Below, one piece after another: positions 5,580-39,860 of a stretch of 64,000 nucleotides of DNA (positions are counted from its first letter, which is position 1; every line of letters starts with the position of its first letter). The translations under genes were made by a program, and so were the position numbers. A model generated the notes under the pieces. That model was not told the DNA's origin and searched no databases. It worked only from the letters and a program-made list of their open reading frames with translations. The DNA lies in NCBI GenBank assembly GCA_022448485.1, contig JAKUUI010000002.1, positions 18,761 through 82,760 of the forward strand, given 5' to 3'. The stretch is from SAR324 cluster bacterium. GTDB taxonomy: Bacteria; SAR324; NAC60-12.

Positions 5580-5638
5580 TAATTCATCCGCTCATATTCT
5601 TACCTATATTAATCTAATTTATTTGCTGGTACAACTCT

Positions 5639-8101: not shown

Positions 8102-8134
8102 ACATCCTTTCAAAAAAATTGTTTAAATGTGAGC

Positions 8135-10549: not shown

Positions 10550-10712
10550 TCAGTGTTTCTAGTACGAACATATATCGTGCGTTTTTTTGAAAGAGTTAAA
10601 GGATAGAATGGCTTATAAAGTTTGAATTAACAACCATTGATCACTAACCATAATACAGTTCATCCTGTTATCTTATCTAATTTATTTAAATGTTTGATTA
10701 TTTTACCAGTCA

Positions 10713-14580: not shown

Positions 14581-14610
14581 TCTTGATTATTCAAGAATTT
14601 CTTGTACTAT
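14581..14610 (+). promoter_or_regulatory. Overlapping palindromes that form a candidate TetR operator, overlapping the candidate promoter TTGATT-16 nt-TACTAT
   Basis: Read directly: TCTTGA-TTAT-TCAAGA at 14581..14596 and CAAGAA-T-TTCTTG at 14592..14604 (three copies of one half-site). TTGATT is at 14583..14588 and TACTAT at 14605..14610. The element lies in the 126-nt divergent region between tetR and the ligase operon. Confidence 0.4.
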
Positions 14611-18077: not shown

Positions 18078-18125
18078 ATTGCCTCAACTATTAGTTCACA
18101 GAAACAAAATTGGAAAAAAGGGAAC

Positions 18126-20298: not shown

Positions 20299-20301
20299 GG
20301 G

Positions 20302-21051: not shown

Positions 21052-21069
21052 GAAGGACTTTCGCACATA

Positions 21070-22962: not shown

Positions 22963-24276
22963 ATGGATCATGAAGAAGAAAAAAATGCGTCGGATGTAAC
23001 TCGTCGCTCTTTGTTGGGGACGAGTGCTGTGCTGGCGGGTGCAGGCATTGTGGGAAGTCAATTGGTTGACCCAGTTGCTAAAACAGCTTTTGCAGCAGGG
23101 AGTGACGAGCCGATTCGCATCGGATTTCAAGCACATCGCACAGGCATTGGAACTGTTTATGGAAAGTGGTATGAACGTACTACAAATGCAGCGGCAAAAT
23201 ACATTAACAGTATCGGTGGAATAGCTGGCCGTCCAGTTGAAATCATAACTGAGGATGACGGGACAGATCCCAAACGTGGTGCGGATGTTGTGGAAAAACT
23301 GGCGACGCAGCATAAAGTTGATTTTGTGTACGGAACACTTTTTTCACATGTAGTGATGGGTTCAGCTCCCCGTGCCGGTGAACTGAAAATTCCTTATTTC
23401 GTCGTCAGCGAAGGCTATCATGTGGCGAGTGGGAAATTGAATCGTTATGTTTTCCAACCTTGCATTACAGACGTTCGCTCACAAATTACGGCTGTTTCCA
23501 GTTGGATTTTTGGCAATCTTGGCAAAAATGTGACTATCATTTATCCAGACTATGCTTTCGGATACGATCATCGGGATTATGCAAGTGCGGCCGCTGCAAA
23601 GAGTGGTGGAAAAATTGTCGCTAAAATCCCCATTCCTATGACAGAAAAGTCTTTTACCCGTTATTTCATTAAAATTCCCCAAAATACCGATGTAATTTAT
23701 CATGTCATGGTCGGGCCGGGAGTTTTAACTTTCGTGCGGGAAATGGGTGAGCACTTCGGTTCAAGTCATCCGAAACTATTCGGTTTTATCGACTCCTTGG
23801 AAGGTGTCAATATTACCAGCCCAGGACTGGGTTTTCTTGATGGTTCTTACTTCTGGGAAGCGATGCCTCGTTATGCAGACGGCTATGATACCATTGGTTC
23901 ACGTTTTTACCGTAATGCAGTTGGGGTAAATGACTCAGGAGCAAGCAAATCTGATCCGAAGGATGTTTCGACTTATTCACACATGTTTGGTTGCTGGGAA
24001 ACGCTTTTTGCCATCAAAGAAGCTGTGGAGCAAAGCGGATACAAGAGCAAAAAAGATTATGGAACTTTGATTGAAACGATCGAAGGTTTCAGCTTTTTCA
24101 ACGAAGGCATTGCTCATCCTCAAGGCAGTAAATTCTTCAGAGGCGAGACTCACCAAGGCTATGGTCAGCAATTTGTTTCACAAGTGAAAAACGGTAAATT
24201 AAATGTGATTCACAGAACATCAATTTCTGATGGCATGTACGAACCGGAAACTGACTACAGGAAGCAGTCTCTGTAA
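22963..24276 (+). CDS. ABC transporter periplasmic substrate-binding protein (LivK/AmiC-type) with a twin-arginine-type signal
   Basis: 437 aa. The signal DVTRRSLLGTSAVLAGAG is followed by AFA. The protein is of the type I periplasmic-binding-protein family, and four Liv-type transporter genes follow it. Confidence 0.8.
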   Translation: MDHEEEKNASDVTRRSLLGTSAVLAGAGIVGSQLVDPVAKTAFAAGSDEPIRIGFQAHRTGIGTVYGKWYERTTNAAAKYINSIGGIAGRPVEIITEDDGTDPKRGADVVEKLATQHKVDFVYGTLFSHVVMGSAPRAGELKIPYFVVSEGYHVASGKLNRYVFQPCITDVRSQITAVSSWIFGNLGKNVTIIYPDYAFGYDHRDYASAAAAKSGGKIVAKIPIPMTEKSFTRYFIKIPQNTDVIYHVMVGPGVLTFVREMGEHFGSSHPKLFGFIDSLEGVNITSPGLGFLDGSYFWEAMPRYADGYDTIGSRFYRNAVGVNDSGASKSDPKDVSTYSHMFGCWETLFAIKEAVEQSGYKSKKDYGTLIETIEGFSFFNEGIAHPQGSKFFRGETHQGYGQQFVSQVKNGKLNVIHRTSISDGMYEPETDYRKQSL

Positions 24277-24304
24277 TCGTTTATCATCTTTTCTTTCATA
24301 TTCT

Positions 24305-24329
24305 TCCGGAGGAATTCCTTTCCTCCGGA
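24305..24329 (+). promoter_or_regulatory. Intercistronic GC-rich stem-loop between the binding-protein and permease genes
   Basis: Read directly: TCCGGAGGAA (24305..24314), loop TTCCT, TTCCTCCGGA (24320..24329). This is a perfect 10-bp stem with no U-tract after it. Confidence 0.6.
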
Positions 24330-24355
24330 TCACCTATCTAATCTCCACTTGAATC

Positions 24356-25249
24356 GTGTCTACTTGGTTGAACGATAACGGGCCATTGCTGTTTTTGGCT
24401 TTGTTGGATGGAACCGTAACAGCATTTGTGCTGGCTTTGATTGCATTGGGTTTGTCGCTGGTTTTTGGTGTCATGCGGATTGTCAATGTGGCACATGGCG
24501 AATTATTTATGTTGGGTGCGGTGCTCTCTTGGTTTGCTTTTGATTTGACAAATGATCCGCTTTGGGGATTTTTGACAGCTCTTGTGTTGGCTCCAGTGAT
24601 TGTCGGCAGCATTGCGATTTTTTCAGATCGCTTTATTTTACGCAAAATCAGTTATCATCCGGAAAGTACGATTGTTGCGACCATCGGTTTACTATATGTC
24701 ATTCAACAATTGACCTTGATGTTTTTTGGTCCGGAAGTACGGCCTGTGGAAGCGCCATTTTATTTTAGAATTCAATTTCCATGGTTCGGTTATTCTGGAT
24801 ATAAATTGCTGGTTGCCGGAATGTCTGCATTGTGTTTGTCGGGAGTTTGGCTGTTGATGAAACGAAGCAAACTTGGCCTGTATATGCGTGCCACTCAACA
24901 GGATATTGAAATTGCAAAAACATTTGGCGTTCCTACCCAAAAGATTTATGCGTCCGTATTTGCACTAGGCGGAGGTTTGGCCGCACTCGCCGGAGTCCTT
25001 GTTGTTCCTATTCGTCAAGCCGATCATTTGATGGGGCTTGAACCGCTTTTGCTTTCTTTCATTGTGGTGATAATTGGAGGTTTGGGCAGCATTCGAGGAA
25101 CAATTGTTGCCGCCTTCATCATAGGTATCAGTGATGGAATAATCTCTGTTTTCTATGAGCCCACTCTGGCTAAAATGCTGGCCACATTGCTGGTGGCAAT
25201 GGTGCTGGTCTTAAAACCGGGCGGACTTTACGGTGAGGATCAGGCATGA
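24356..25249 (+). CDS. Branched-chain-amino-acid-type ABC permease (LivH-like)
   Basis: 297 aa with a GTG start. It is multi-pass and has ALIALGLSLVFGVMRIVNVAHGE, typical of LivH-family permeases. Confidence 0.8.
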   Translation: MSTWLNDNGPLLFLALLDGTVTAFVLALIALGLSLVFGVMRIVNVAHGELFMLGAVLSWFAFDLTNDPLWGFLTALVLAPVIVGSIAIFSDRFILRKISYHPESTIVATIGLLYVIQQLTLMFFGPEVRPVEAPFYFRIQFPWFGYSGYKLLVAGMSALCLSGVWLLMKRSKLGLYMRATQQDIEIAKTFGVPTQKIYASVFALGGGLAALAGVLVVPIRQADHLMGLEPLLLSFIVVIIGGLGSIRGTIVAAFIIGISDGIISVFYEPTLAKMLATLLVAMVLVLKPGGLYGEDQA

Positions 25250-26208
25250 GGAAAAATTCTTTAAATCACTCGCTACTGTTTCAAGGCGGGATTTTGATGC
25301 TGTTATTTCTTTTGCAGTTCATTTTGCCGACTTACCACCACAGCAGTGTTTCCAAAATCATGTTATTGGCTTCGTATGCGATCGGCTATAATTTTTTACT
25401 GGGCTATACTGGATTGATGAGTCTCGGTCACGCTATGTTTTTTTCGTCCGGGATGTATTCGATGGGTTTAGGCATTTATTATTTGGAGCTTTCGCCCTTG
25501 AACGGGGTGATTTTTAGTGCTTCCTTTTCGCTGATGGTATCACTGATATTCGGTTTGTTTGCACTACGTACGAGTGGCGTTTCATTTTTAATTGTAACTC
25601 TGATGTTCGGGCAAACATTCTACCTGTCAATTCTCTATTTCAATGAATTCACTTTTGGTCATGATGGATTTTCTCTGGCCAAGTATTTGGGGTCATTCGT
25701 TATTTTTGGTAAAGAATATCTTTTTAGCAATCCAGACATCCGCTATAATTTTGCTCTGCTTTTATTGACTTCCTATTTGCTGATCACGACCTTTATCCTG
25801 CTATCTCCGGTGGGACGCATCTTAATAGCAATTCGTGAAAATGAGTCCCGGACACAACTTTTAGGTTATAATGTTTTTTATTACAAACTTTTTGCACTTG
25901 TTCTTTCAGGGACATTTTCAGGTGTTGCCGGAGCAATGCACGGTTTGCTTTTTTCCTACATCGGAACAACTTTTGCGGAAATTCATCATTCTATTTCTCC
26001 GCTACTCTGGACTCTGCTTGGTGGAGCAGGAACTGTTATTGGCCCACTTTTCGGAACCGGAATAATGTATTACCTGATTGATTTTATCAGTGAAATAACC
26101 AAAAACTATCTGCTTGTGGTCGGCATTGTTTTGATTTTAATGATCATCTGGTTCCCATTGGGAATCATGGGATCAGTAAGAAGAAAATGGTTGAAATGGC
26201 TCCCGTAA
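25246..26208 (+). CDS. Branched-chain-amino-acid-type ABC permease (LivM-like)
   Basis: 320 aa, multi-pass, with GYTGLMSLGHAMFF typical of LivM. It overlaps the upstream gene by 4 nt. Confidence 0.8.
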   Translation: MRKNSLNHSLLFQGGILMLLFLLQFILPTYHHSSVSKIMLLASYAIGYNFLLGYTGLMSLGHAMFFSSGMYSMGLGIYYLELSPLNGVIFSASFSLMVSLIFGLFALRTSGVSFLIVTLMFGQTFYLSILYFNEFTFGHDGFSLAKYLGSFVIFGKEYLFSNPDIRYNFALLLLTSYLLITTFILLSPVGRILIAIRENESRTQLLGYNVFYYKLFALVLSGTFSGVAGAMHGLLFSYIGTTFAEIHHSISPLLWTLLGGAGTVIGPLFGTGIMYYLIDFISEITKNYLLVVGIVLILMIIWFPLGIMGSVRRKWLKWLP

Positions 26209-26957
26209 AACTACTTGGCACCCAGGGTTTGACCAGGCAATATGGCGGATTGATTGCGGTGAATGATGTAGACTTCAATCTTTACGAAGATCGGATTCAC
26301 GCTATCATTGGTCCAAATGGAGCCGGAAAAACAACACTTGTCAGCATGATTTGCGGTCGAACTCCGTCATCTTCCGGTCGCATCAATTTTAAAGGCAAGG
26401 ATATCACTCGTCTTTCTTCCGCAAAACGTGTTCAAGCCGGAATTGTTTATACATTTCAAGTTACAAGCATTTTTGGCAACCTGAGCTGTTTTGAAAATGT
26501 TGCTCTTTCTGCGCAAAGAACTTTGAGAGAGCAGCCGGAAGGTCGGGCGTCGCTGGAGAAATGGGGCATGGTCAGTGAAATTGAGATTGAAAAAGCGGTG
26601 TCAAAATATCTCCTGAAAGTTGGCCTCGAAGGGATTGAATCTCAAATCGCAAGTACCCTGCCTTATGGTCATCAAAAATTATTGGAGGTTGCCATGGGGT
26701 TGGCAGCCGGACCGGAGTTGTTGATTTTGGATGAACCAACACAAGGTTTGGCCGAATCTGAAATAGATAATCTGATTCAACTGATTCGTGATATTTCAAA
26801 ATCTGTAAATGTTCTTTTGATCGAACACAATATGGAAGTTGTTTTCAATTTGGCAGAGCATGTTACTGTTATGGACAATGGGTCAATTCTCGCTGAGGGA
26901 ACACCAAGTGAAATTGAAAACAATCCTGCAGTTCAAGATTCATATTTAGGGAATTGA
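26187..26957 (+). CDS. ABC transporter ATP-binding protein (LivG-like)
   Basis: 256 aa with Walker A GPNGAGKTT, signature-like LPYGHQKLLEVA and Walker B LLILDEP. Confidence 0.85.
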   Translation: MVEMAPVKLLGTQGLTRQYGGLIAVNDVDFNLYEDRIHAIIGPNGAGKTTLVSMICGRTPSSSGRINFKGKDITRLSSAKRVQAGIVYTFQVTSIFGNLSCFENVALSAQRTLREQPEGRASLEKWGMVSEIEIEKAVSKYLLKVGLEGIESQIASTLPYGHQKLLEVAMGLAAGPELLILDEPTQGLAESEIDNLIQLIRDISKSVNVLLIEHNMEVVFNLAEHVTVMDNGSILAEGTPSEIENNPAVQDSYLGN

Positions 26958-27664
26958 TGCTAAAGATCAACAATTTATCAAGCCGTTATGCTCAGGTAAA
27001 AGTTCTGAACAAAGTTACTTTGAAAGTCAAAGAAGGTGAGATTTTGGGGCTGTTAGGTCGAAACGGAGCAGGAAAATCCACGCTTTTGAAAAGCATTATG
27101 GGTTTAGTTGAAGTTGTTTCCGGAAGTATTTCCCTGGACGAGAACATATTAAGTGAGCAGCAGGCCCACAATATTCCAAAATACGGAATCGGCTATGTCC
27201 CACAAGGAAGGCGTTTGTTTCCAGAGTTGATGGTGGAGGAAAATCTGAAAATGGGGCTTTTGGTGCGAGACAGTTCCACTGATGTTTTGGATTGGGTTCT
27301 TTCTTTGTTTCCTTTGCTGAAATCCCGGATGAAACAAAAATCTGGAACGTTGAGCGGGGGTGAACAACAAATGGTGGCCACTGCCAGAGCTTTGTGTCTT
27401 CAGCCAAAGTATTTGCTAATGGATGAACCCAGTGAGGGGCTTATGCCAAGCATGACTGAAACTATCCTTGAAACTGTGGAAAAACTCAAAACTGAAAACG
27501 TGGGAATATTGCTCGTGGAACAGAAAATCGAAGGCACTTTGCGAGTTTCTGACCGCATTGTTTTTATGGAAAATGGCTCCATTAGTGAAGAATCTGATCC
27601 TCAAAAACTTGCTGAAAATCCGGAATCTTTAATGAAATATGTCGGCGTGAAAGCACGATATTAA
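26954..27664 (+). CDS. ABC transporter ATP-binding protein (LivF-like)
   Basis: 236 aa with Walker A GRNGAGKST, signature LSGGEQQM and Walker B LLMDEP. It overlaps the upstream gene by 4 nt. Confidence 0.85.
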   Translation: MMLKINNLSSRYAQVKVLNKVTLKVKEGEILGLLGRNGAGKSTLLKSIMGLVEVVSGSISLDENILSEQQAHNIPKYGIGYVPQGRRLFPELMVEENLKMGLLVRDSSTDVLDWVLSLFPLLKSRMKQKSGTLSGGEQQMVATARALCLQPKYLLMDEPSEGLMPSMTETILETVEKLKTENVGILLVEQKIEGTLRVSDRIVFMENGSISEESDPQKLAENPESLMKYVGVKARY

Positions 27665-27722: not shown

Positions 27723-29150
27723 ATGATGATTCAAAAGTGTGGCAAATACTTGATGCTGATAGGGGGTGGAACTGTAATTCCGCAATTAGCTTTTGCTCAT
27801 GCCGGACATCGTGGATATGTGATGTTGCTGCCCACGGAATTATTTATGGTGGGTGGGGCCGTCGTTGTAGCTTTGACTTTTGCTGCAATGATTTTTGTAA
27901 CTCGAAAATCGACCTCCGGAAAGTTTTTAATCTCAGAAACTTCTGATATTGAAATTCAGCCGAAGTTTTGGGCAAGTTTACTGTCATTGCTGATGTTGCT
28001 GTTACTAGTTTGGATCGGCTTCACCGGAAATAGAGATCCGATGAAGAACCTTTTGACTATGACAGTTTGGGTTTTTTGGTGGATCGGCTTGACGATGGCA
28101 ACTGCTGTATTTGGTAATATTTGGGGAATCGTGAGTCCTTGGCCGGCATTGCTTAAACTGCTCTCGAAATTTCAAAAAATAAGCATTTTTACAAAGCGAT
28201 CTTTAGAAAATTCCAAGCGCTTGGCATATTGGCCTGCAACTTTATTGTTTTTTGGTTTTGCCTGGTTGGAATTGATTCATCCCTCGCCAATGGATCCGGA
28301 AGTATTGGCAAAATATATTTTGCTGTATTTGTTCATTACAACATTAGGGATTATCTTGTTTGGTGGAAAAAGCTGGCTCAAAATGGGGGAACCCTTTACA
28401 GTATTTTTCCGCATGGTAGGCTGGCTTTCACCGATTTATTGGAAATCCTCTGTAGAAAAAAATGAAGAGTTTACCCAACAAATTTCAATCCGCTGGCCTT
28501 GTGCAGGCTTGCTCAGGCCAGAGTCTTTACCTACTGGCGGAGTAGCATTTGTTTTGTTGGTACTTTCCACAGTTTCATTTGACGGATTATCAAAAACTTT
28601 TTGGTGGTTGTCAATTGTAGGAATCAACCCCCTGGAATTTCCGGGGCGTACGGCAATGATTTTGCCAAACACTTTAGGACTTTGTAGTACATTTCTGTTA
28701 TTTTTAGTTGTTTTCTATGCAACTCAGGGACTTGCATCACGGTTGAATCAGGAAGTTCAACAAACGAGTAGTTTTATCTATTCCATGATTCCGATTGCCT
28801 TCGGCTACCACTTTGCTCATTATTTGCCTACTTTTCTTGTTGATATTCAGTATGCTTTTATTGCTCTCTCGGATCCTTTTGGAGTTGGCTGGAACCTTTT
28901 TGGAACTGCAGAATGGACTGTAACATCGTCCTATTTGACGAATTATGATTCTGTGGTTCTGATTTGGTTACTTCAGGTTCTCAGTATTGTACTGGCTCAT
29001 GTTGGAGCGGTGATAGTGTCTCATTTATTACATTTACATGAGTCGGAAAGTCTGCAAAAATCCATGATGGGACAAGTTCCGGCGACTCTGTTGATGATCG
29101 GTTATACTGTTTTTGGACTCTGGCTGCTTTCCACTCCCGTGGTTAGCTGA
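27723..29150 (+). CDS. Polytopic integral membrane protein, unknown family
   Basis: 475 aa with about ten or more hydrophobic spans by eye and an N-terminal AFAHAGHRGYVMLLP segment. I recognise no family motif. It lies between the ABC genes and hyuA on the same strand. Confidence 0.5.
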   Translation: MMIQKCGKYLMLIGGGTVIPQLAFAHAGHRGYVMLLPTELFMVGGAVVVALTFAAMIFVTRKSTSGKFLISETSDIEIQPKFWASLLSLLMLLLLVWIGFTGNRDPMKNLLTMTVWVFWWIGLTMATAVFGNIWGIVSPWPALLKLLSKFQKISIFTKRSLENSKRLAYWPATLLFFGFAWLELIHPSPMDPEVLAKYILLYLFITTLGIILFGGKSWLKMGEPFTVFFRMVGWLSPIYWKSSVEKNEEFTQQISIRWPCAGLLRPESLPTGGVAFVLLVLSTVSFDGLSKTFWWLSIVGINPLEFPGRTAMILPNTLGLCSTFLLFLVVFYATQGLASRLNQEVQQTSSFIYSMIPIAFGYHFAHYLPTFLVDIQYAFIALSDPFGVGWNLFGTAEWTVTSSYLTNYDSVVLIWLLQVLSIVLAHVGAVIVSHLLHLHESESLQKSMMGQVPATLLMIGYTVFGLWLLSTPVVS

Positions 29151-29243: not shown

Positions 29244-31280
29244 ATGACTCAAATCGTCGGTGTTGATGTAGGGGGTACTTTTACGGATCTTGTTCTTTTT
29301 GACGCATTTGAAGCAAGCGTCAAAATTGCCAAAGTTTTGAGTACCCCTGAAAATCAAGCATTTGGTGTTATGAAAGCCCTTGAATCTGCAGAAGCGACTA
29401 TGAAGCCAATTGATACTGTCATCCACGGTACGACTGTGACGACCAATGCTTTGTTGGAACGTAAAATTAGCCGTGTGGGCCTGATTACAACTCAGGGCTT
29501 TCGTGATGTTCTAGAACTGGGAAGACGTACACGGCCCAAACCTTACGGAATGACAGGAAGTTTTGAATGCATTATCCCCAGGGAATTGCGACTTGAAGTG
29601 AGAGAGCGGATTGATTGTGACGGAGAAATAGTTGAAACGTTGAACGAAGCAGATGTCCGGCAAGCTGTGGAGCAACTACTAAAATCCGGAGTTGAAGCAG
29701 TAATTATCCATTTTCTTCATTCCTACAAAAACGACCTACACGAACGCATGGCAGAAGAAATAGTACAAGACCTATGGCCAAACCGGTTCATTACTCGTGG
29801 CAGTGCATTGGTTTCAGAATATCGTGAATACGAGAGAGGAACTACCGCGGCGATAAATGCTGCAATTCAGCCAGTATTGAATCACTATATTGAACGGTTA
29901 CAGCAAAATCTTAAGGAGGAAGGTTATTCCAAAGACTTGCTGGTCATGCAAGGAAACGGGGGTACGGTTTCTTCAAATATTGTTTCAAAGGATGCCGTTA
30001 AAACGGTAATGTCCGGGCCGGCATCTGGAGTCATGGCCGCTGCGTATACCGCCTCCCAATCCGGATTTAATCGAGTCGTGACTTATGATATGGGGGGAAC
30101 CAGTTGTGATGTTGGACTGATTGTGAACGGTATTCCGCAAGTTACATCAGAACTTGAAATTGAATACGCCATGCCGATTCATGTTCCAATGGTAGATGTG
30201 CACACCATCGGTGCGGGTGGAGGAAGTTTATCTTGGGTTAATGAAGCAGGTTTGTTGCAAGTTGGACCGGAAAGTGCTGGTGCGCAACCAGGTCCGATTT
30301 GTTACGGACGTGGTGGAAGCAAACCAACCATTACTGATGCTAACCTAGTGCTTGGACGCTTGAATCCTGCCACTTTGCTTTCGGTTGATAATCCTGTTTC
30401 GATTGAAACGGTAAGGAATCATTTGATCGAACAGGTAGGGGTGATGCTCGGATTGAAAGACGCAGAAGAAACTGCTTCGGCAATTGTGCGAGTCGCCAAC
30501 ATGAATATGGCTGGTGCCTTGCGTCTTGTTTCACTTGCGAGAGGATACGATCCACGTGATTTTACGCTGTTTGCCTTTGGTGGAGCTGGTCCGCTACATG
30601 CAGTTGCGTTGGCTAGGGAACTTGGGATACCGAAAGTTTTGGTGCCGATGCGCCCTGGGATTACAAATGCTGTCGGATGTGTTGTCGCTGATGTGAGGCA
30701 CGATTATGTGAACTCTATCAATATGCCGTTGGCACAAGCCGACATGGATCAGGTTTATGAAATTTTTTCAACACAGATTTTAGCCGGGAAGAAGATCATT
30801 GAAACTGAGGGAGTAGAGATCGATGAGTTGTTCTTTATTCACGATGTTGACATGCAGTTTCAAGGACAAACACACATTCTCAATTTTCCTGTAAAGGAGA
30901 CGAGAGTCACTCAAGAGTCGTTGCAATCCGAATTTGAAAAAGCGTACTGGAATCGTTTTGGAGTAGAACTTCCAGAAATCCTAGCAGTTTTGGTCAATCT
31001 GCACACAGCCGTAATTGGTCGCCGCAAGCCTGTACCATTGAAGTCGCTGATGTCCGCAGAAGAACAAAAAAATAAGATTGAAGAATGCATTATTGGGAAT
31101 AGGCGTGTTTGGTTTGAAACAGGTTGGGAGAATACGTCCATCTACAAAAGAGAAAAATTCCCAGGGCAAGCAAAATTCAATGGTCCGGCAATTATTGAGC
31201 AACTTGACACCACCATTATTGTTGAGCCAAACAACCAGGTGGAAGTCGATCTAAACGGTAATTTAATTATCTCGCTCTAA
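29244..31280 (+). CDS. hyuA: Hydantoinase/oxoprolinase family, A (ATP-binding) subunit
   Basis: 678 aa. The N-terminal GVDVGGTFTDLVL and the internal DMGGTSCDV are typical of HyuA, N-methylhydantoinase A and the acetone-carboxylase beta family. Confidence 0.85.
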   Translation: MTQIVGVDVGGTFTDLVLFDAFEASVKIAKVLSTPENQAFGVMKALESAEATMKPIDTVIHGTTVTTNALLERKISRVGLITTQGFRDVLELGRRTRPKPYGMTGSFECIIPRELRLEVRERIDCDGEIVETLNEADVRQAVEQLLKSGVEAVIIHFLHSYKNDLHERMAEEIVQDLWPNRFITRGSALVSEYREYERGTTAAINAAIQPVLNHYIERLQQNLKEEGYSKDLLVMQGNGGTVSSNIVSKDAVKTVMSGPASGVMAAAYTASQSGFNRVVTYDMGGTSCDVGLIVNGIPQVTSELEIEYAMPIHVPMVDVHTIGAGGGSLSWVNEAGLLQVGPESAGAQPGPICYGRGGSKPTITDANLVLGRLNPATLLSVDNPVSIETVRNHLIEQVGVMLGLKDAEETASAIVRVANMNMAGALRLVSLARGYDPRDFTLFAFGGAGPLHAVALARELGIPKVLVPMRPGITNAVGCVVADVRHDYVNSINMPLAQADMDQVYEIFSTQILAGKKIIETEGVEIDELFFIHDVDMQFQGQTHILNFPVKETRVTQESLQSEFEKAYWNRFGVELPEILAVLVNLHTAVIGRRKPVPLKSLMSAEEQKNKIEECIIGNRRVWFETGWENTSIYKREKFPGQAKFNGPAIIEQLDTTIIVEPNNQVEVDLNGNLIISL

Positions 31281-33029: not shown

Positions 33030-33031
33030 CT

Positions 33032-33628
33032 TTAGCGCAGTCCATCATTTTCGGAAATCTGATTAGCTTCTAATCCGCCGACTCTTGCGTGTACACGTCC
33101 TCCTGTTGCCATGACAAGCCCATAAACAATTTCATGTGCCCTTGGTGCGTCCTGAACGTAAACTTCCATTGCGTCAAAATGGCTGCGTACGTAAGATGCG
33201 TTTATGTGCGTGATAGGGATGTCCAAACGAGATCCTATTCCACCGACTTTTTTGGCGGAAGGAACTATGGCTAGTGCTCCTCCTAGGGCTTCTCGCATGG
33301 CATAACCTCCTGGAACGTGCCAGAGTGCGCCGTGTTCCAGTTCACCTGCTTCCCCAACGATTGATCCTTTCCCGTAACTTTGTACCTGATCAGCTCCACC
33401 AAGCAAGTCGATAAGCTTATTTGCTGCATCAAGACCTATTGGTTTCAAGGCATCCATCATAGGGATTATTTTGCTAACGTACTGGCCTGCATAAGGATTT
33501 TCTAATACAATAAGAACCGCACCTTTTTTAATGGGTATCTTGCTGACAGGTCCTCCTTCATGAAAAATATTCTCAACATGGGTCACTATTTTTCTCACTT
33601 TGATCAAATCATTCATTGGAGATCTCAT
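33032..33628 (-). CDS. 'Amino acid synthesis' family protein (AA_synth/DUF1185-type), function unknown
   Basis: 198 aa. It shows the pattern ...ENPYAGQYV...LGG...YGKGSIVG..GELEHG...SHFDAMEVYVQDAPRAHEIV...GGRVHARVGG, which matches my memory of that family. An alternative start at ATG 33616 gives an 8-nt ATGAATGA overlap with the upstream gene. Confidence 0.7.
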   Translation of the reverse strand: MRSPMNDLIKVRKIVTHVENIFHEGGPVSKIPIKKGAVLIVLENPYAGQYVSKIIPMMDALKPIGLDAANKLIDLLGGADQVQSYGKGSIVGEAGELEHGALWHVPGGYAMREALGGALAIVPSAKKVGGIGSRLDIPITHINASYVRSHFDAMEVYVQDAPRAHEIVYGLVMATGGRVHARVGGLEANQISENDGLR

Positions 33629-34487
33629 CTAAATTGTTTTCAATAACAAGCCTTTGTTGTTGTAGTGAAAGATAAGCCGCTTCTATTTTTCCCGCCTTGA
33701 TAAATTTCCTCGCGGTTCGTAAACCTTGATGAAGCGCTTTAGAAGTTTGTTCTTCCGGCAATGGCGGGACATGAACTGTAACTGGAATCCTACCCAAATC
33801 ACTGTCGTCCTTTACTTCCGAAGCAGGTCGTTTTTCGATACCTTGATATTTGATATTAACATCATTTGCGATTAATGTGGCTGCAACATCAGCAATAGAA
33901 GCCGATCTAGCCAATACTGTTACAGCATCAGCAATGCCTAGACTTAGAGAGCGCCCGCGCCAGCCAGATGTTGCAATACCACGGACTGGGCTTTCGTATG
34001 GGAGGCATACTTTGGTGTTTAATTCCGGTATTTCAGCATTATCAACTACTCCTAGAGAATACGAAGAACCTTGGTTCAACCAAAAAGCAATATCCCCACC
34101 GTTATTTACATACATTTTCTGTATATGCTTCAGAAAAGAATCTTGTTTTTTTGCTTCAAACAACAACGTATTGAGAACCTCATCTGCCACTGAGCCGGCT
34201 ACTGCTGCCATTGGTGTGATAAAAACCTGCGAATCACTCACAGCAGCCAGCATTTTCTGAGCAATGCTGCCTTGTGGAACAGGATTATTGATGCTCCATG
34301 GGAGCCTCAGCAAATCCAATTCGGCAACCAGTTCATCCAAGATTGTATTGAAACGATTTTTGGCACAGGAGTACAAGTGTAGGCGTATCTCTTCTGGAGC
34401 TTCGACATGAGCAATTATGTCAATTGGTCCGTGCTGCAAATAAAGACGATCATTCCTCGGCAGCGGTTCAGCATTAGTTTCCTGCAT
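33609..34487 (-). CDS. UPF0280 family protein (ApbE-related fold, as I recall)
   Basis: 292 aa. The segments ITPMAAVAGSVADEV, VNNGGDIAF and GIATSGWRGRSLSLGIADAVTVLA resemble UPF0280/ApbE-like proteins. Confidence 0.55.
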   Translation of the reverse strand: MQETNAEPLPRNDRLYLQHGPIDIIAHVEAPEEIRLHLYSCAKNRFNTILDELVAELDLLRLPWSINNPVPQGSIAQKMLAAVSDSQVFITPMAAVAGSVADEVLNTLLFEAKKQDSFLKHIQKMYVNNGGDIAFWLNQGSSYSLGVVDNAEIPELNTKVCLPYESPVRGIATSGWRGRSLSLGIADAVTVLARSASIADVAATLIANDVNIKYQGIEKRPASEVKDDSDLGRIPVTVHVPPLPEEQTSKALHQGLRTARKFIKAGKIEAAYLSLQQQRLVIENNLDEISNE

Positions 34488-34535
34488 TTATTTGATCTGG
34501 TCCTTCAATAAATTTTGTTAATAAAATATTTAGAG

Positions 34536-36002
34536 TTAATTGTAAGGCCAAGGGTTATCTTGGTTCCATTGAGCAATTAGTGTTTCTCTTTGTTGGGTGA
34601 GGTCTTCCAAATATTGAACTTGCTCCATGTGTCCGCCTAGGGCTTCAAAGTCTGAGAGGTTCATTGTGAATTCAATCGGAGCCACTATAGCTGGGGTAGG
34701 GACACTACCAAAAGAATTTTCAGGCATTTTTGTTACATCGACCATGATCGTGATTCCTCCACCAGGCCAGACATATACAGGAGCCCCTCCGCATGTTATT
34801 CTAGTTAATAAATTTTGAACAGATCGAGTAAGGCTAACAGGGTTTTCAGTGACACCTGCTCTCAAACTACCACCGGCTCCTGCCATGAAAAGTACACTTG
34901 AGCAAGCAGGTTCACAGTTTTCTCCAATTCTATCCACTACTTTTTGAAGAATCTTTGGCATTTTTTGTTCACAAGGTTTGAGATTTTCGTCAAAAACAAA
35001 ATAAGTTGCATCTTCACCAGTTGTACTCACCATTAACAATCTCAAACCTGGATATGTGACACCTTTTTTAATACGATCTATGATTTCAAGAGGATTGGAA
35101 ATATCGGTCCCTCCCCAGCCGTGCCCTGGATTAGCTACCTGAAAATATCTTCCAGGAGTGGAACGCCGACCGCGGACCCTGATTCCGGAAGGTTCCATGC
35201 CTAAAAAGCGACCTGCCTGATGTTCTGAAAGCATGCCGGTTATGTGTTCATCCACTACAATCACTTCATCAACATGTCCATGCCACTGTTTTGCAAAGAT
35301 TCCGATTGTTGCAGAACCACAGCCTACACGCATTCTCTCCTCCTGTTCACCATCTATGATTGGAGCTGAACCCGCTTTAATGACCAGTCTGGAGCCTTCA
35401 TCAACTTCAAATTCTACAGATTTTTTATTTCCCAGGTCCATCATCATTTGGCAGGTAACTCTCCCTTCTTGCTTGCTGCCTCCTGTCAAATGATGAACTC
35501 CTCCAAGAGAGAGCATCTGTGAACCATATTCAGCTGTAATAACGTGTCCAACCTCTTCGCCTTGACAACGAACGGAGGCTTTTTCCGGTCCAACGTAACG
35601 ATCAGTATCGATTTTTATTTTATAGCTACAATAACTGAAGATGCCTTCTGTAACCACGGTGACCATATCCACATCATGATGTCTGCTCGCAATAATAAAA
35701 GGTGCTGGTTTGTAATCCGGATATGTGGTGCCTGCCCCTAAAGCAGTTGGAAAAATTGATTCTGGATTCAAGACGGAGCCGTCCCACTTTTTTGTTTGTT
35801 TTTCAAAAGGAACAACTGCTTCATTTTGGTCAATTACATTTTGAGTAAGGATTACGGGATCTATCCGTTGAAGTTTCCCGTTAAAGTTGCCATAGCGGTC
35901 ACATGATCCGGTTTTCCCTGGGCTAATTCTGCACAGAATCGGACAGGCATCGCAATTGACTTTTTCAGAAGATGTACTCTTTTCTTCAGAATTACTAACC
36001 AT
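34536..36002 (-). CDS. 6-hydroxynicotinate-reductase-like protein with an N-terminal Cys cluster
   Basis: ATG 36002 (MVSNSEEK...) overlaps the hydroxylase stop by 8 nt (ATGGTTAG). The N-terminal CDACPILC...C is a possible Fe-S site. As I recall, proteins of this size found next to UPF0280 and AA_synth genes are annotated 6-hydroxynicotinate reductase in other genomes. I cannot verify homology here. Confidence 0.4.
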   Translation of the reverse strand: MVSNSEEKSTSSEKVNCDACPILCRISPGKTGSCDRYGNFNGKLQRIDPVILTQNVIDQNEAVVPFEKQTKKWDGSVLNPESIFPTALGAGTTYPDYKPAPFIIASRHHDVDMVTVVTEGIFSYCSYKIKIDTDRYVGPEKASVRCQGEEVGHVITAEYGSQMLSLGGVHHLTGGSKQEGRVTCQMMMDLGNKKSVEFEVDEGSRLVIKAGSAPIIDGEQEERMRVGCGSATIGIFAKQWHGHVDEVIVVDEHITGMLSEHQAGRFLGMEPSGIRVRGRRSTPGRYFQVANPGHGWGGTDISNPLEIIDRIKKGVTYPGLRLLMVSTTGEDATYFVFDENLKPCEQKMPKILQKVVDRIGENCEPACSSVLFMAGAGGSLRAGVTENPVSLTRSVQNLLTRITCGGAPVYVWPGGGITIMVDVTKMPENSFGSVPTPAIVAPIEFTMNLSDFEALGGHMEQVQYLEDLTQQRETLIAQWNQDNPWPYN

Positions 36003-38748
36003 TTTTTCCTGCTTTTTGAAGTGTAGCAAGAACGCAGTCAGGTGTCGCTGGAACATGATGGATAGAAACTCCGGTGGCGTGCTTAATAGCACCTAGGATT
36101 GCAGGTGCTGTTGGAATCAATGCATGTTCACCAATTCCTTTGGCCCCGTATGGTCCCAACGGTTCCGGATCCTCAATCAAGATTACCTCGATTTCCGGCA
36201 TATCGCCAACTGTCGGCATAAGATAATCGTGCAGATTTTCACTGACCTTTTGTATGTACTCTTCCATTAGGGCCAATCCTAACCCTTGTGCGATTCCACC
36301 ATGAATCTGCCCTTCTACCTGAGTTGGATTGATGGTTTTCCCGACATCATGTGCAGCGGCAAGTCTCAGAACTTTAGTTGTTCCTAATAAAGTGTCCACT
36401 TCAACTTCAGCTATATGTGCTCCGAATCCGTAAGTTGCATATGGATTGCCTTGACGATTTTCATCGAGATGTGTTGTAGGTGGATCAAAGGTTCCCTTGC
36501 CCGTGAGTACATCACCACTTATTTGGGGTAAAATGTCAGAGAGAAGAATCACATGCTCACCAGAGTCATCTTTTGCTATTAGTTTTTCCCCCTCAATGTG
36601 AATAGTCGCTTTTTCAGAAGCTTCTGCATGATGAATGATTTGTGCTCTTAAATGTTCTCCTGCGAGTTGAGCTGCTTTTCCGGACACAAAAGTTTGTCTA
36701 GATGCAGAAGTTTTTCCTGCATCTGCGGTAAGGTCTGTGTCACCCATCACTAGATCAAATTGAGATGCTGGAATGCCCAGGGCATCCGCACAAATTTGAA
36801 CCATGATAGTGTTTGCTCCCTGTCCGATATCCATTGCTCCATTATACAAAGTAACTTTGCCTTCAGCATTTATACCGACACACATCGTGGAAGGGTTCGA
36901 CATTGAAGTGTTTCCGCATCCATACCAAACACATCCTGTACCGATCCCTCGTTTTGTATTAGCAGTTTTTTTATTGAACTCTTTTGCCTCTTTGCGCCAT
37001 TTGATCCAACGACTTTTAAGAGATTCTAAACACTCCACCTGTCCCACACTATTTTCAAGTAACTGGCCGGTGGCGGTTCGGTCTCCTTTCCGGAGAGCGT
37101 TCTTTATCCGAAACTCTAGAGCATCCATGCCAATCTTTTCAGCCAGTGCGTCCATTAGCGCTTCATGAGCAATGGCGGCCTGGGGGGTACCGAATCCACG
37201 GAAAGCCCCTGAAGGTGATTCGTTGGTGAACAATGCTCTGGTTTGGGAAAGCACATTAGGAACGAAATAAGGTCCGGTGCAGTGAATTGGAACCCTATCC
37301 GCAACTGTTGGCCCCCAGGAAGCATAGGCTCCTGTATTAAAATCCCCTCGATATTCAAAGGCAGTCAATTTTCCTTCACGGGTGCAACCGGCTTTTGCAT
37401 TCATGCGTACAGGATGTCTTTTGGTGGTTGAGGCCAGAGATTCAGGACGAGTGTAAATACAACGCACTGGACGATCGAGAATCCAAGCTGCAACCGCAAC
37501 CAAAGGTTGTAGTGAAATATCCAGTTTCCCACCAAAGCCACCACCGACTGCAGAGGGAATAATCCGAATCTGTTTCGGCTCAATGCCCAGTACTTGCGCC
37601 ACTTCTTCCTGATCCATGAACGGTGTTTGTGTGCAGACAAAGATTTCCAAGTTTTTCCCAACCTTGCAGGCATATCCTGCTTCAGGCTCAATGTATCCGT
37701 GCTCAATTGCTGAAGTGGTCCAGATTCCTTCGGCGACAGCATATGACTCTGAAAACCCTTTTTCAACATCACTTTTTTTCACGTAGCCCCTGGACAGAGT
37801 ATTGTCAGGAAATTGAGCTTGTACTGGTTCCAAATTTCCTGCTAGAGCACCATCCAAACCGCGGATGGCTTCTAGGGGTTCCCAACTCAATCCCAAATCC
37901 TCTTCGCTCACACAGTCAACACTTACCTGGTCACCAACCAATGCAAGCACGGCTTCTCCTCGGAAACGCACGTGGTTTTTCGCTAAAACGGGTTGATCTT
38001 TGATGTGTGGATAGATGCCGAAGCCATTGTTTCCCGGCACGTCGTCTGCGGTCAAAACTTTGACCAAACCGGGATATTTCTGCAGTACTTTTTCCGGGTC
38101 ATCATATGTGAATTTTGCACGTGGGTGTGGGGAACGGATGGCTCTAAGCCAAAGTGAATCATCCGGAGCCTGGTCTGCACCGAAAATTTCTTCTCCGGTG
38201 ATTTTTTTGCGCCCATCGACTTTTACCATGCGGGTGCCGACAGCATTTCCGGATTTTGGAACCGGCGGAGAAGACTGATCCTGCCCTGCTTTGAGTACGG
38301 CTTGAACTATTTTCGTGTATCCGGTACAGCGGCACAAGACGCCGCCGAGCGCGTCGAGCACTTGTTGTTCTGACGGGTTTGAAGTTTTGTACAACAAGGA
38401 TTGCGCCGCCATCAACATTCCTGGGGTGCAAATACCGCACTGAGCTGCGCCTTCGTCAAGAAATGCTTGTTGAAGTGGTGTCAGTTCTCCATTTTTTGAA
38501 AGTCCTTCTACGGTACGGACCTTACGGCCCCCCACCTGTCCGATTGCCGTCAAACAGGCATTGTGCTGCTTTCCGTCAATTAGGATTGTACAAGCCCCAC
38601 AGTCCCCTGCATCACAACCAACTTTGGTTCCAGTCAAGCACAAATCCTCTCGGAGTACATCAGAAAAACGGCGAAGTGGGTTAACAGAAAGAGTTTGTGG
38701 AGTGTCGTTCAGAATGAATGAAACGGTGATTTTTTCAGCTGTAATCAT
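35995..38748 (-). CDS. Xanthine-dehydrogenase-family molybdenum hydroxylase, fused [2Fe-2S] and molybdopterin-binding subunits
   Basis: 917 aa. The N-terminal CDAGDCGACT and CRCTGY are the two 2Fe-2S motifs. A large Moco domain follows, ending with the AKGIGEHA active-site-Glu-type motif. There is no CODH-type VAYRCSFR loop. Confidence 0.85.
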   Translation of the reverse strand: MITAEKITVSFILNDTPQTLSVNPLRRFSDVLREDLCLTGTKVGCDAGDCGACTILIDGKQHNACLTAIGQVGGRKVRTVEGLSKNGELTPLQQAFLDEGAAQCGICTPGMLMAAQSLLYKTSNPSEQQVLDALGGVLCRCTGYTKIVQAVLKAGQDQSSPPVPKSGNAVGTRMVKVDGRKKITGEEIFGADQAPDDSLWLRAIRSPHPRAKFTYDDPEKVLQKYPGLVKVLTADDVPGNNGFGIYPHIKDQPVLAKNHVRFRGEAVLALVGDQVSVDCVSEEDLGLSWEPLEAIRGLDGALAGNLEPVQAQFPDNTLSRGYVKKSDVEKGFSESYAVAEGIWTTSAIEHGYIEPEAGYACKVGKNLEIFVCTQTPFMDQEEVAQVLGIEPKQIRIIPSAVGGGFGGKLDISLQPLVAVAAWILDRPVRCIYTRPESLASTTKRHPVRMNAKAGCTREGKLTAFEYRGDFNTGAYASWGPTVADRVPIHCTGPYFVPNVLSQTRALFTNESPSGAFRGFGTPQAAIAHEALMDALAEKIGMDALEFRIKNALRKGDRTATGQLLENSVGQVECLESLKSRWIKWRKEAKEFNKKTANTKRGIGTGCVWYGCGNTSMSNPSTMCVGINAEGKVTLYNGAMDIGQGANTIMVQICADALGIPASQFDLVMGDTDLTADAGKTSASRQTFVSGKAAQLAGEHLRAQIIHHAEASEKATIHIEGEKLIAKDDSGEHVILLSDILPQISGDVLTGKGTFDPPTTHLDENRQGNPYATYGFGAHIAEVEVDTLLGTTKVLRLAAAHDVGKTINPTQVEGQIHGGIAQGLGLALMEEYIQKVSENLHDYLMPTVGDMPEIEVILIEDPEPLGPYGAKGIGEHALIPTAPAILGAIKHATGVSIHHVPATPDCVLATLQKAGKNG

Positions 38749-38750
38749 AT

Positions 38751-39575
38751 TTAAACAACTCCCGTGATAGCACGTTTCAATAACTCTGGAACGACGGCAT
38801 TTCTATAATTCGCTGAAGCACGCACATCATCGATCGGATCCAATAATTCCAAGTGCTTGGGATGAATCTCTATAGATTTGAGTCTTTGTCCAACACATTC
38901 CTTTTCTAGCAGCCGGAGCCGTTGCGCCACAGGTGAACAAGCACCAACAGCAACTTTGAGATTCAAAATCTCATCTTGTTCATTCAATTCGGCAACCACT
39001 CCTACCATTACAATCGAAATTACAAGATATGCTCGTATTCCTAGTTTCTCAAAATTACCGAATGCATTTTTTCCGGGATGAGGAACGAATATATTGCTGA
39101 CGAGTTCATCCTGTTTTTTTGCGGTCTTTCTATTTCCGAGAATGAATTCCTCCAGGGATAGTGTTCTAATACCTTGCATGGACTTCAGTTCTACCTTTGC
39201 ATCCAGTGCCATTAAATTTGGTACGCTGTCTGCTGCAGGAGATGCATTACAGATATTACCGCAAAGTGTTCCAGCATTTTGAGTCTGAATCCCACCAATC
39301 GTTTTTGCGGCTTTCTTCAGACCATCGAATGCAGATGGTAATTCGGCCTGAATGATGTCTGTCCATGTGGTTAACGCACCAAGAGAAAAGCCTTCATCTG
39401 TTTGTTGAATGGAACGAAGACCTTGGATTCCAGTTAAATCGAGTACTTTTTCGGTGATTGGCTTTCCGACTCTGGCAGGATAAAAATCGGTACCTCCTGC
39501 CAGCAGAGTCAATGGATATTCACTCAACGCAACAAGTGCGTCTTCAAGTTTATCTGGTCGAAAATACTTTAACAT
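38751..39575 (-). CDS. Molybdenum hydroxylase FAD-binding subunit (CoxM/XdhB-like)
   Basis: LLAGGTDFYPA is the FAD-binding motif. I prefer ATG 39575 (MLKYFRPDKLEDAL), because the ORF-track extension to 39650 adds 25 non-conserved-looking residues. Confidence 0.8.
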   Translation of the reverse strand: MLKYFRPDKLEDALVALSEYPLTLLAGGTDFYPARVGKPITEKVLDLTGIQGLRSIQQTDEGFSLGALTTWTDIIQAELPSAFDGLKKAAKTIGGIQTQNAGTLCGNICNASPAADSVPNLMALDAKVELKSMQGIRTLSLEEFILGNRKTAKKQDELVSNIFVPHPGKNAFGNFEKLGIRAYLVISIVMVGVVAELNEQDEILNLKVAVGACSPVAQRLRLLEKECVGQRLKSIEIHPKHLELLDPIDDVRASANYRNAVVPELLKRAITGVV

Positions 39576-39860
39576 CAGCAACTGTGTCTTATAAAAAAGC
39601 AGAAAAATCTTAATTATCTCGAGACCGAAAGTGGTTTTTTCCTGTACCAAAGCCTACCTTAAGAGAGTTGAGTTGACAACTCTAAAAAACTTCAAATATC
39701 AGTTTCAGATAACTTTGATTTGTCGTAAATTTGCTAACTTGAACACAAATCATAAATCAGAACTAAATTCCGGACCTGAAGATCATAACAATCTTGCCCG
39801 TAAAAATAATATAATGTAAGATGCTTATTGATTACTCCTCCAACAACAATCTATATTCTC

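Follow-up and report, generated by a model that had tools for sequence, protein, structure and literature searches.

We describe here a five-gene operon in a 64-kb stretch of DNA from a SAR324 cluster bacterium (the window), which a first-pass annotation, made from the letters of the sequence, had read as a hydroxylate-then-reduce module for a pyridine-like or pyrimidine-like ring. Our analysis suggests that the five genes, numbered G1 to G5 in 5' to 3' gene order, probably form the front end of a reductive catabolic pathway of the nicotinate type, with ring opening by a HyuAB-type enzyme encoded next door and with the product of G5 acting downstream. Hydroxylation followed by reduction of a pyridine ring is the reading that best suits the predicted proteins, given their family assignments, the synteny of the last three genes in other genomes and the match of the hydroxylase to NdhL and NdhM of nicotinate dehydrogenase. 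The locus differs from known clusters in its marine lineage, its fused hydroxylase, its short-form reductase and the presence of HyuAB beside it without an enamidase. The missing enamidase and the neighbouring operon for HyuAB and an ATP-binding cassette (ABC) transporter, both of which the first-pass annotation missed, are the actual peculiarity of the locus.

A molybdenum hydroxylase closest to nicotinate dehydrogenase

On the evidence of their domains, G1 and G2 are assigned to one two-subunit molybdenum hydroxylase, with FAD predicted on the first subunit and two [2Fe-2S] clusters plus the molybdenum cofactor (Moco) on the second. Pfam bears out the initial calls of a CoxM-like FAD subunit and a fused 2Fe-2S/Moco hydroxylase: G1 matches FAD_binding_5 (137 bits) and CO_deh_flav_C, and G2 matches Fer2_2, Ald_Xan_dh_C, MoCoBD_1 and MoCoBD_2. 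Together the two proteins hold the complete cofactor set of the xanthine dehydrogenase (XDH) family, namely the FAD subunit, two [2Fe-2S] domains and two Moco-binding domains. A homolog of G1 lies upstream of the G2 homolog in 51 of the 87 related loci surveyed below.

Judged against solved structures by search scores, the closest relative of G2 is nicotinate dehydrogenase. Both Moco halves score the enzyme of Eubacterium barkeri far above XDH, 4-hydroxybenzoyl-CoA reductase, MOP, Qor and CO dehydrogenase. For residues 165-590 the best solved match is 3hrd_A (NdhL, 284.5 bits), with XDH/xanthine oxidase next at 161 bits, and for residues 595-917 it is 3hrd_B (NdhM, 219.6 bits), followed by 4-hydroxybenzoyl-CoA reductase at 146.6 bits. 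A search with full-length G2 puts the aldehyde oxidoreductases of Desulfovibrio first, because the fused architecture is common to both. With NdhL and NdhM ahead by so wide a margin among solved matches, the hydroxylase does not group with aldehyde oxidoreductases or CO dehydrogenases, an outcome that the first-pass annotation had named as speaking against its reading. The XDH-type active-site motif that it had pointed out is found as well: GAKGIGE of G2 aligns with GAKGVGE of NdhM, conserving the Glu of the C-terminal GxGE motif, which we take from the XDH family to be the catalytic residue. None of the NCBIfam equivalog models reached its cutoff with G2 (the two highest scores were 581 bits for Se-dependent XDH, against a cutoff of 830, and 562 for a pterin aldehyde oxidoreductase, against 1100). 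Nicotinate would be the substrate of G1 and G2 on grounds of homology and context.

A short-form member of the 6-hydroxynicotinate reductase family

G3 is a putative 6-hydroxynicotinate reductase (Hnr). The protein has no match in Pfam, NCBIfam or the PDB sequences, and its homologs, which make up a large and strongly conserved family, are named 6-hydroxynicotinate reductase by both NCBI and JGI. The N-terminal CxxCxxxC...C cluster described for this protein of about 490 residues is confirmed as C17-x2-C20-x3-C24-x9-C34, a motif that is invariant in 84 clade members and also in relatives of only 27-42% identity. Across the family, represented by the 84 clade members and by 19 members with as little as 27% identity, C228 is nearly invariant too. 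When 1.84 billion representatives were searched exhaustively, 1248 Hnr-family clusters came out, and most of the distant full-length members have a length of about 510 aa and an extra N-terminal 2x[4Fe-4S] ferredoxin domain. The Hnr of E. barkeri reportedly contains two [4Fe-4S] clusters, and from these cofactors we presume that it has the N-terminal domain itself; no named E. barkeri member was present among the 20 distant Hnr clusters inspected. In two proteins, P0252 (969 aa) and P0246 (982 aa), the Hnr module is naturally fused to a GltD-like NADPH-dependent FAD/FeS oxidoreductase, which in P0246 is inserted within the Hnr sequence. These fusions suggest that in some lineages the electrons ultimately come from NADPH.

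Structure prediction added little to this assignment. The AlphaFold2 model of G3 has a pLDDT of 61, and a Foldseek search of the PDB with this low-confidence model gave nothing below E = 0.04, TM scores not exceeding about 0.1. G3 shows no recognisable flavin-binding domain. We also considered G3 as a remote relative of DUF39, the known partner of COG2122, and rejected this because no member of the G3 family matches Pfam DUF39; a permissive Pfam scan of the family returned only a marginal match to the GCV_T_C barrel (29 of 36 members, best 2.9e-4).

Conservation of the operon

Relatives of the locus were collected by scanning species-representative genomes with an alignment of G3, which gave 80 loci at 60-82% G3 identity, mostly from alpha- and betaproteobacteria. 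Seven more loci from contig look-ups brought the number to 87, neighbours were identified by tblastn, and 46 loci with full 10-kb flanks make up the full-flank set. De novo clustering of open reading frames (ORFs) in high-GC loci gave many antisense artefacts, and only verified clusters were kept (enamidase, Fpr, TetR and separate Mo-hydroxylase subunits).

In the window, five tightly packed minus-strand ORFs span 33032-39575 as originally annotated, and their junctions, described as 2- to 48-nt gaps and 8-nt overlaps, read that way in the sequence. The TAA stop of G1 is followed after 2 nt by the ATG of G2, the stop of G2 overlaps the start of G3 by 8 nt (ATGGTTAG at 35995..36002), 48 nt separate G3 from G4, and the stop of G4 again overlaps the start of G5 by 8 nt (ATGAATGA at 33609..33616). 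Read from the ATG at 39575, G1 encodes 274 aa and equals its homolog in the related locus L001 in length. Tight packing of these genes is kept across relatives, with median spacings of -4 nt for G2-G3 (55 loci), +3 nt for G3-G4 (71 loci) and +15 nt for G4-G5 (49 loci), and with start/stop overlaps at 32 of the 55 G2-G3 junctions and 30 of the 71 G3-G4 junctions.

The most constant element of the operon is the pair formed by G3 and G4. In 71 of the 72 loci with room for it, the Hnr gene is directly followed by a homolog of G4, which belongs to UPF0280, and the reverse test, starting from UPF0280 in metagenome contigs, finds the Hnr gene immediately upstream in 60 of 62 loci. The two genes are thus a near-obligate two-gene unit within the short-form clade, and G4 is the dedicated partner of G3. 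Of the full-flank loci, 40 contain a Mo-hydroxylase gene, 35 AA_synth (the family of G5), 25 an enamidase homolog and 11 HyuA. The trio of Hnr, UPF0280 and AA_synth, whose co-occurrence had been put forward at first pass, is therefore syntenic in other genomes. Each of four distant Hnr loci is accompanied by a Mo-hydroxylase, and two or three of them also by an amidohydrolase; neither UPF0280 nor AA_synth occurs within 10 kb of Hnr in these four. UPF0280 is accordingly a feature of the short-form clade, which is without the ferredoxin domain, and not of the whole Hnr family.

Several individual loci depart from the common arrangement. L036, from a metagenome-assembled genome (MAG) of a betaproteobacterium (about 10001-11455), is the only genome locus with downstream room but no UPF0280 within 10 kb, and it keeps the motif GCGSAT in G3. 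The metagenome contig Ga0164290_1000179 (L135, about 5034-9453) holds the sole locus with UPF0280 and AA_synth yet no Hnr within 6 kb; the pair is flanked there by a GntR regulator and a Liv-type binding protein. A stand-alone Hnr-UPF0280-AA_synth trio is found amid gyrA, BolA and Fe-S assembly genes in an uncultured Pseudomonadota MAG (L007/L009, about 10001-12911). A ferredoxin-NADP reductase gene is divergent from the Hnr gene in L051, L052, L057, L059, L067, L068, L074, L075, L078 and other betaproteobacterial loci, and in loci of this type separate small and large Mo-hydroxylase subunits 8-9 kb downstream replace the fused G2. Upstream of the cluster in L005/L006 are a ferredoxin and a 1181-aa Pyr_redox_2 protein.

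HyuAB as a probable substitute for enamidase

No enamidase is encoded in the 64-kb window, where the best tblastn hit has E = 0.26. The plus-strand operon that meets the five genes at their 3' end encodes, after the ABC transporter and a polytopic membrane protein, a HyuA- and a HyuB-type subunit, for which the best NCBIfam models are those of caprolactamase (alpha 537 bits, beta 347 bits, both below the cutoff of 1000). In related loci the enamidase is readily recognised, a representative matching the E. barkeri enamidase (PDB 2vun) at 3.6e-110. It lies within 10 kb of the Hnr cluster in 25 of the 46 full-flank loci, and orthologs of HyuA (53-64% identity) lie near Hnr in 11; by raw locus counts not one locus has both (Fisher p = 2.6e-5). 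The metagenome loci repeat this pattern, with enamidase in 10, HyuA in 3 and both in none. In five loci (L029, L033, L072, L077 and L081) HyuA starts directly after G4 on the same strand. It is this mutual exclusivity with enamidase, together with the placement within the operon in other loci, that makes HyuAB the candidate ring opener, and we infer that the cyclic enamide made by the reductase is opened by the HyuAB orthogroup instead of enamidase. Lactams with rings of five to seven members, valerolactam among them, are substrates of ATP-dependent hydrolysis by enzymes of the HyuAB type (PMC8453981, PMC6838509, PMC11033972). In the literature searched, no paper ties 6-hydroxynicotinate to a hydantoinase, and none reports 1,4,5,6-tetrahydro-6-oxonicotinate (THON), the proposed enamide, as a substrate of the HyuAB family.

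A probable role of AA_synth after ring opening

The assignment of G5 to AA_synth (DUF1185-type) is upheld by a full-length match to PF06684 (230 bits, profile positions 1-175 of 175) and by solved members of the family, 3byq (E = 1.7e-55) and 2qtp (4.3e-41). AA_synth is present in all 25 enamidase-type loci of the full-flank set, compared with 10 of the 21 others (p = 2.6e-5) and 4 of the 11 HyuA-type loci, and in the metagenome sample it accompanies enamidase in 10 of 10 loci. Its distribution thus follows the ring-opening step more than the reductase. According to the passage of PMC7913881 that cites Perchat 2018, the DUF1185 protein TgnF of trigonelline catabolism stimulates an aldehyde-dehydrogenase step that follows the opening of the ring. 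On the strength of the co-occurrence with enamidase and of this report, we suggest that G5 may handle the product of ring opening, an enamine or 2-formylglutarate. In two of the four distant Hnr loci (L091 and L092), RidA-family (Ribonuc_L-PSP) genes stand beside the amidohydrolase genes. Their presence would fit an enamine or imine as the intermediate once the ring is open, and RidA could there be a functional analogue of AA_synth.

The proposed pathway and its alternatives

In the pathway that we propose, the ABC transporter would import the substrate, most likely nicotinate, which might also be derived from nicotinamide through the protein encoded at 21924-22655. G1 and G2 would then hydroxylate the pyridine ring with water, converting nicotinate to 6-hydroxynicotinate, and G3, by homology and context, would reduce the ring to the cyclic enamide THON, with G4 as a maturation factor or an extra subunit specific to the short-form clade. 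HyuAB of the convergent operon would open the lactam ring at the expense of ATP, taking the place of enamidase, and G5 would act on the ring-opened product, the enamine or 2-formylglutarate.

A number of observations weigh against this pathway. The N-terminal 2x[4Fe-4S] domain of distant Hnr proteins is absent from G3 and from its whole clade at more than 60% identity, and the stand-alone trio of L007/L009 has no Mo-hydroxylase, transporter, enamidase or HyuAB within 10 kb. HyuAB may serve another lactam or a hydantoin, and an enamidase could be encoded beyond the 64 kb. The co-occurrence counts were not corrected for phylogenetic relatedness, and the G3 tree is a neighbour-joining tree without support values. 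All five genes are covered by marine metatranscriptome contigs, with the G5/G4 and G4/G3 junctions spanned; the support that these assembled contigs give to expression and co-transcription is weak, because such libraries can contain DNA. Two further points, the convergent orientation of HyuAB and the loci without either ring-opening enzyme, are taken up below with the alternative to which they belong.

The main rival is that the chemistry is the same and the substrate another one, such as picolinate, isonicotinate, a pyrazine or pyrimidine carboxylate or a pyridone, with the HyuAB loci marking a switch of substrate. We regard this as unlikely. It would account for the failure of G2 to reach any NCBIfam equivalog cutoff, for a HyuAB that is only caprolactamase-like and below cutoff, and for the lack of AA_synth in 7 of the 11 HyuA-type loci, and the amidase, CoA ligase and luciferase-like monooxygenase encoded upstream hint at a wider catabolic island. 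However, among solved structures NdhL and NdhM are nearest to the two Moco halves by a wide margin, G2 and G3 of the window stand no closer to HyuA-type than to enamidase-type loci, and the two locus types interleave on the neighbour-joining tree of G3, as would be expected of one orthologous function.

Alternatively, HyuAB and the ABC transporter could be an unrelated neighbour operon for a hydantoin or another lactam, with the true ring opener encoded elsewhere in the genome. In the window HyuAB does form a separate operon, convergent to the five genes; in L001-L003 three unrelated genes (a PEMT-like gene, a 37-aa ORF and a LytTR gene) part G5 from HyuB; and in 10 of the 46 full-flank loci neither enamidase nor HyuA lies within 10 kb. 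Against this, HyuA orthologs recur beside Hnr clusters in distant alpha- and betaproteobacteria, follow G4 within the operon in the five loci named above, and are strictly exclusive with enamidase. Chance neighbourhood seems to us an improbable explanation. Catabolism of homarine (N-methylpicolinate) was rejected as a candidate, since the published hom operon is an unrelated one that relies on flavin-dependent enzymes.

The role of UPF0280

The call of G4 as a UPF0280 protein is sustained by NCBIfam PRK04334.1-2 (326.4 bits against a cutoff of 290); on three other UPF0280 sub-models G4 scores just 61-74 bits. Its membership of the ApbE superfamily, suggested at first pass as an ApbE-like fold, is supported by weak matches to Pfam ApbE in 22 of 33 G4 family members (best 2e-6); homologs of G4 also carry the precomputed assignment PF27030, and the sources label the family as ApbE superfamily. 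G4 of the window itself does not match Pfam ApbE (PF02424) even at E <= 10, and a profile of the G4 family found only the uncharacterised 2o34 in the PDB (1.3e-11) and no ApbE entry. The AlphaFold2 model of G4 is unusable (pLDDT 42, from a shallow alignment of 20 sequences at >=70% identity). To describe UPF0280 and AA_synth as orphan families was an overstatement, since, besides the effect of TgnF noted above, Desulfovibrio vulgaris has a genetic requirement for COG2122/UPF0280, alongside DUF39 and a NIL/ferredoxin protein, in its synthesis of homocysteine (bioRxiv 10.1101/192971).

One possibility, about which we are doubtful, is that the short-form reductase has in UPF0280 a stoichiometric subunit or redox adaptor, which would dock an external ferredoxin, Fpr or the hydroxylase in place of the missing ferredoxin domain. 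UPF0280 is tied to the clade whose Hnr is without the N-terminal 2x[4Fe-4S] domain and is absent at loci with a ferredoxin-fused Hnr, and the frequent overlap of the two genes (30 of 71 loci) fits a complex of this kind. The Hnr-GltD-like fusions P0246 and P0252, and the adjacent ferredoxin or Fpr genes of some loci, show that electron input is modular in the family. On the other hand, neither an invariant Cys nor an obvious redox-cofactor motif is present in the UPF0280 family, and L091 has a short Hnr (469 aa) with neither the ferredoxin domain nor UPF0280.

The idea put forward at first pass, that UPF0280 is a cytoplasmic ApbE-like flavin transferase that installs a covalent flavin on the Hnr-family reductase, appears rather unlikely. 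The weak ApbE matches and superfamily labels of G4 relatives speak for it, as does the adjacency of G3 and G4, near-obligate in both directions. The G4 family has invariant GGD, ATSG and ADxxxT-like motifs, which we take to be the ApbE motifs, and the E. barkeri Hnr described by Alhapel and co-workers in 2006 is said to contain a covalently bound flavin. UPF0280 is, however, missing within 10 kb of Hnr in the four distant loci, G4 of the window has no Pfam ApbE match of its own, and another COG2122 subfamily pairs with a non-flavin system of DUF39 and ferredoxin. The acceptor motif of ApbE is of the Dxx(s/t)gA(T/S) type, with Thr or Ser as its last residue. The sole motif in G3 that resembles such a target is GCGSAT, which does not begin with Asp. 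Its Thr, T232, is replaced by Ala in 14 of the 84 clade members, including the close relative L008, and is not conserved in distant Hnr members. As these 14 members bear UPF0280, T232 was rejected as a phosphoester flavinylation site of the ApbE type. For a covalent flavin on G3, if there is one, C228 would be the conserved candidate residue.

A more far-reaching proposal is that the hydroxylase and the ferredoxin-less reductase work as one machine, with UPF0280 as adaptor or maturase, so that the two electrons withdrawn from nicotinate at the Mo centre would go directly into the reduction of 6-hydroxynicotinate and an ATP-dependent lactamase would replace enamidase. The net reaction, nicotinate + H2O -> THON, is formally redox-neutral, and the system would be a 'ring hydratase' with no external low-potential donor in an aerobe. 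The G2-G3 overlap in 32 of 55 loci and the presence of UPF0280 in the ferredoxin-less clade are compatible with it; loci with the trio alone (L007) and the ferredoxin-NADP reductase of some loci count against its generality, and we hold the proposal as a whole to be very unlikely.

Genomic surroundings

The features of the locus are collected in Table 1.

Table 1. Features of the window, with positions in the 64-kb stretch, strand and basis of assignment.
Feature	Coordinates	Strand	Basis
Isochorismatase-family protein, nicotinamidase-like motifs, 243 aa	21924..22655	-	Pfam Isochorismatase
Liv/Urt-type ABC transporter: binding protein, two permeases, two ATPases	22963..27664	+	Pfam Peripla_BP_6, BPD_transp_2 x2, ABC_tran x2
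Polytopic membrane protein, 475 aa, between transporter and HyuA	27723..29150	+	mostly hydrophobic segments
HyuA-type subunit, ATP-dependent lactamase/hydantoinase, 678 aa, candidate ring-opening enzyme	29244..31280	+	Pfam Hydant_A_N, Hydantoinase_A, Hydant_A_C
HyuB-type subunit, 575 aa	31302..33029	+	Pfam Hydantoinase_B, 544 bits
G5, AA_synth (DUF1185) protein, 194 aa	33032..33616	-	PF06684, PDB 3byq
G4, UPF0280/COG2122-type ApbE-superfamily protein, 292 aa	33609..34487	-	NCBIfam PRK04334.1-2
G3, short-form Hnr-family protein, putative 6-hydroxynicotinate reductase, 488 aa	34536..36002	-	homolog names, Cys motif
G2, fused 2x[2Fe-2S] + molybdopterin subunit, nicotinate-dehydrogenase-like, 917 aa	35995..38748	-	Pfam, PDB matches
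G1, CoxM/XdhB-like FAD-binding subunit of Mo-hydroxylase, 274 aa	38751..39575	-	Pfam
Presumed promoter region, AT-rich, 252 bp, between operon and divergent dnaE	39576..39827	.	sequence
dnaE, 1293 aa, divergent from operon	39828-43709	+	

The stop codons of HyuB and G5, on opposite strands, are 2 nt apart (window 33027-33034). This spacing leaves no room for intergenic terminators, so the convergent transcripts must end inside each other's genes or overlap. A consensus scan found no minus-strand promoter-like site in the region between the operon and dnaE; the one promoter-like site there, at 39828-39857 on the plus strand, coincides with the dnaE start, and the total count is not above that of shuffles. 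Across the scan, no promoter or terminator was convincing, with counts no higher than in shuffled sequence. The long dnaE gene keeps its place beside the operon in L001, where it encodes 1267 aa as compared with 1293 aa in the window, and a relative at 82-83% G3 identity preserves the order dnaE-operon-HyuBA-membrane protein-ABC, apart from three additional genes between G5 and HyuB.

A transporter of the Liv/Urt type stands beside the Hnr cluster in about 45-51 of the 87 loci, and one of this type has been called a putative nicotinate ABC transporter (PMC3511419). The 475-aa membrane protein has no match in Pfam, NCBIfam or the PDB; a homolog of 61% identity is encoded at the corresponding place in L002, and another (40%) lies near the cluster in L065, from Dongia mobilis. 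A GMC oxidoreductase takes its slot in L005/L006. The best solved matches of the isochorismatase-family protein are the nicotinamidases 2wt9 and 3pl1, at only E ~1e-5; the protein has the motifs IIVDEVNGF, DTH...PPHC and GICTDICV, and in L024 a homolog of 59% identity is encoded at a distance of 5 kb from the Hnr cluster. By converting nicotinamide to nicotinate the protein may supply the pathway, although the link is weak. Further upstream, a catabolic run on the plus strand (14609-21867) encodes an acyl-CoA ligase, an alpha/beta hydrolase, a luciferase-like monooxygenase, a short-chain dehydrogenase/reductase, an amidase-signature amidase, an enoyl-CoA hydratase and a MaoC dehydratase, and an acyl-CoA dehydrogenase is encoded at 46547-47716. 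These enzymes might process the ring-opened product.

The GC content of the window is about 43%, and the nearest relatives that bear a name are MAGs with the labels Deltaproteobacteria and Candidatus Lambdaproteobacteria, which correspond to the SAR324 group. The sequence is represented, at 90% or above, in many marine, cold-seep and plankton metagenomes.

Relation to known systems

A cluster conserved in Azorhizobium caulinodans (AZC_2804-2790), Bradyrhizobium japonicum (blr3818-3830), Rhodopseudomonas palustris and Bradyrhizobiaceae SG-6C was described in 2012 (PMC3511419, Fig. 4), in work that builds on the 2006 study of Alhapel and co-workers, and the cluster type found here is thus already known in kind. 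The Hnr homolog of the Bradyrhizobiaceae cluster is 42% identical to that of E. barkeri, the isolate grows on nicotinate and 6-hydroxynicotinate, and the clusters are reported to include the third-step enzyme, enamidase (PMC3511419). By synteny in the 80 genome loci, two proteins left unnamed in that work would be UPF0280 and AA_synth. The locus in the window differs from those clusters in that it has HyuAB next door where they have enamidase, and in that it belongs to an uncultured marine lineage with about 43% GC whereas they come from soil alpha- and betaproteobacteria.

Alhapel and colleagues are said to have described, in 2006, the E. barkeri cluster for nicotinate fermentation, comprising NdhFSLM, Hnr and enamidase (structures 3HRD and 2VUN). 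With that cluster the window has in common a hydroxylase of the XDH family (G2 finds its best solved matches in the Moco halves of the E. barkeri enzyme), a reductase of the Hnr family and the logic of hydroxylation before reduction. It differs in the fusion of the FeS, NdhL and NdhM parts into one 917-aa chain and in the lack of an enamidase, the third step of the E. barkeri module, anywhere in the 64 kb. Compared with distant members of the Hnr family, G3 is without the N-terminal 2x[4Fe-4S] domain, and UPF0280 and AA_synth, not found at the four distant Hnr loci, are both present.

The single components have parallels of their own. The system of COG2122, DUF39 and a NIL/ferredoxin protein in Desulfovibrio and methanogens (bioRxiv 10.1101/192971) resembles the G3-G4 pair in that a protein of the same broad family, distantly related to ApbE, stands beside an iron-sulfur or ferredoxin-linked enzyme, but the subfamily is another one and the partner is DUF39 there and Hnr here. 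As far as the account in PMC7913881 extends, TgnF of the trigonelline pathway of Acinetobacter baylyi shares with G5 its Pfam family and its setting in a catabolic operon for a pyridine carboxylate; that pathway employs a flavin oxygenase, in contrast to the Mo-hydroxylase and reductase encoded here. CapAB (caprolactamase) and OplBA (5-oxoprolinase/valerolactamase) have the two-subunit HyuA/HyuB architecture, and some of these enzymes take six-membered lactams (PMC8453981, PMC6838509, PMC11033972). HyuAB of the window, however, falls far below the caprolactamase equivalog cutoffs (537 and 347 against 1000), and THON, its proposed substrate, is an unsaturated, carboxylated delta-lactam.

Significance

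The pairing of Hnr with UPF0280 and the association of enamidase with AA_synth lead to testable hypotheses for two poorly characterised families, and culturable carriers of the cluster exist, among them Paraburkholderia xenovorans LB400 (L076), Variovorax, Bosea and Pelagibius. If the proposed pathway is true, the exchange of enamidase for an ATP-dependent lactamase would represent a clear-cut example of non-orthologous displacement and provide a HyuAB orthogroup, so far unassigned, with a defined substrate. It would also mean that an abundant, uncultured marine lineage is able to catabolise vitamin B3.

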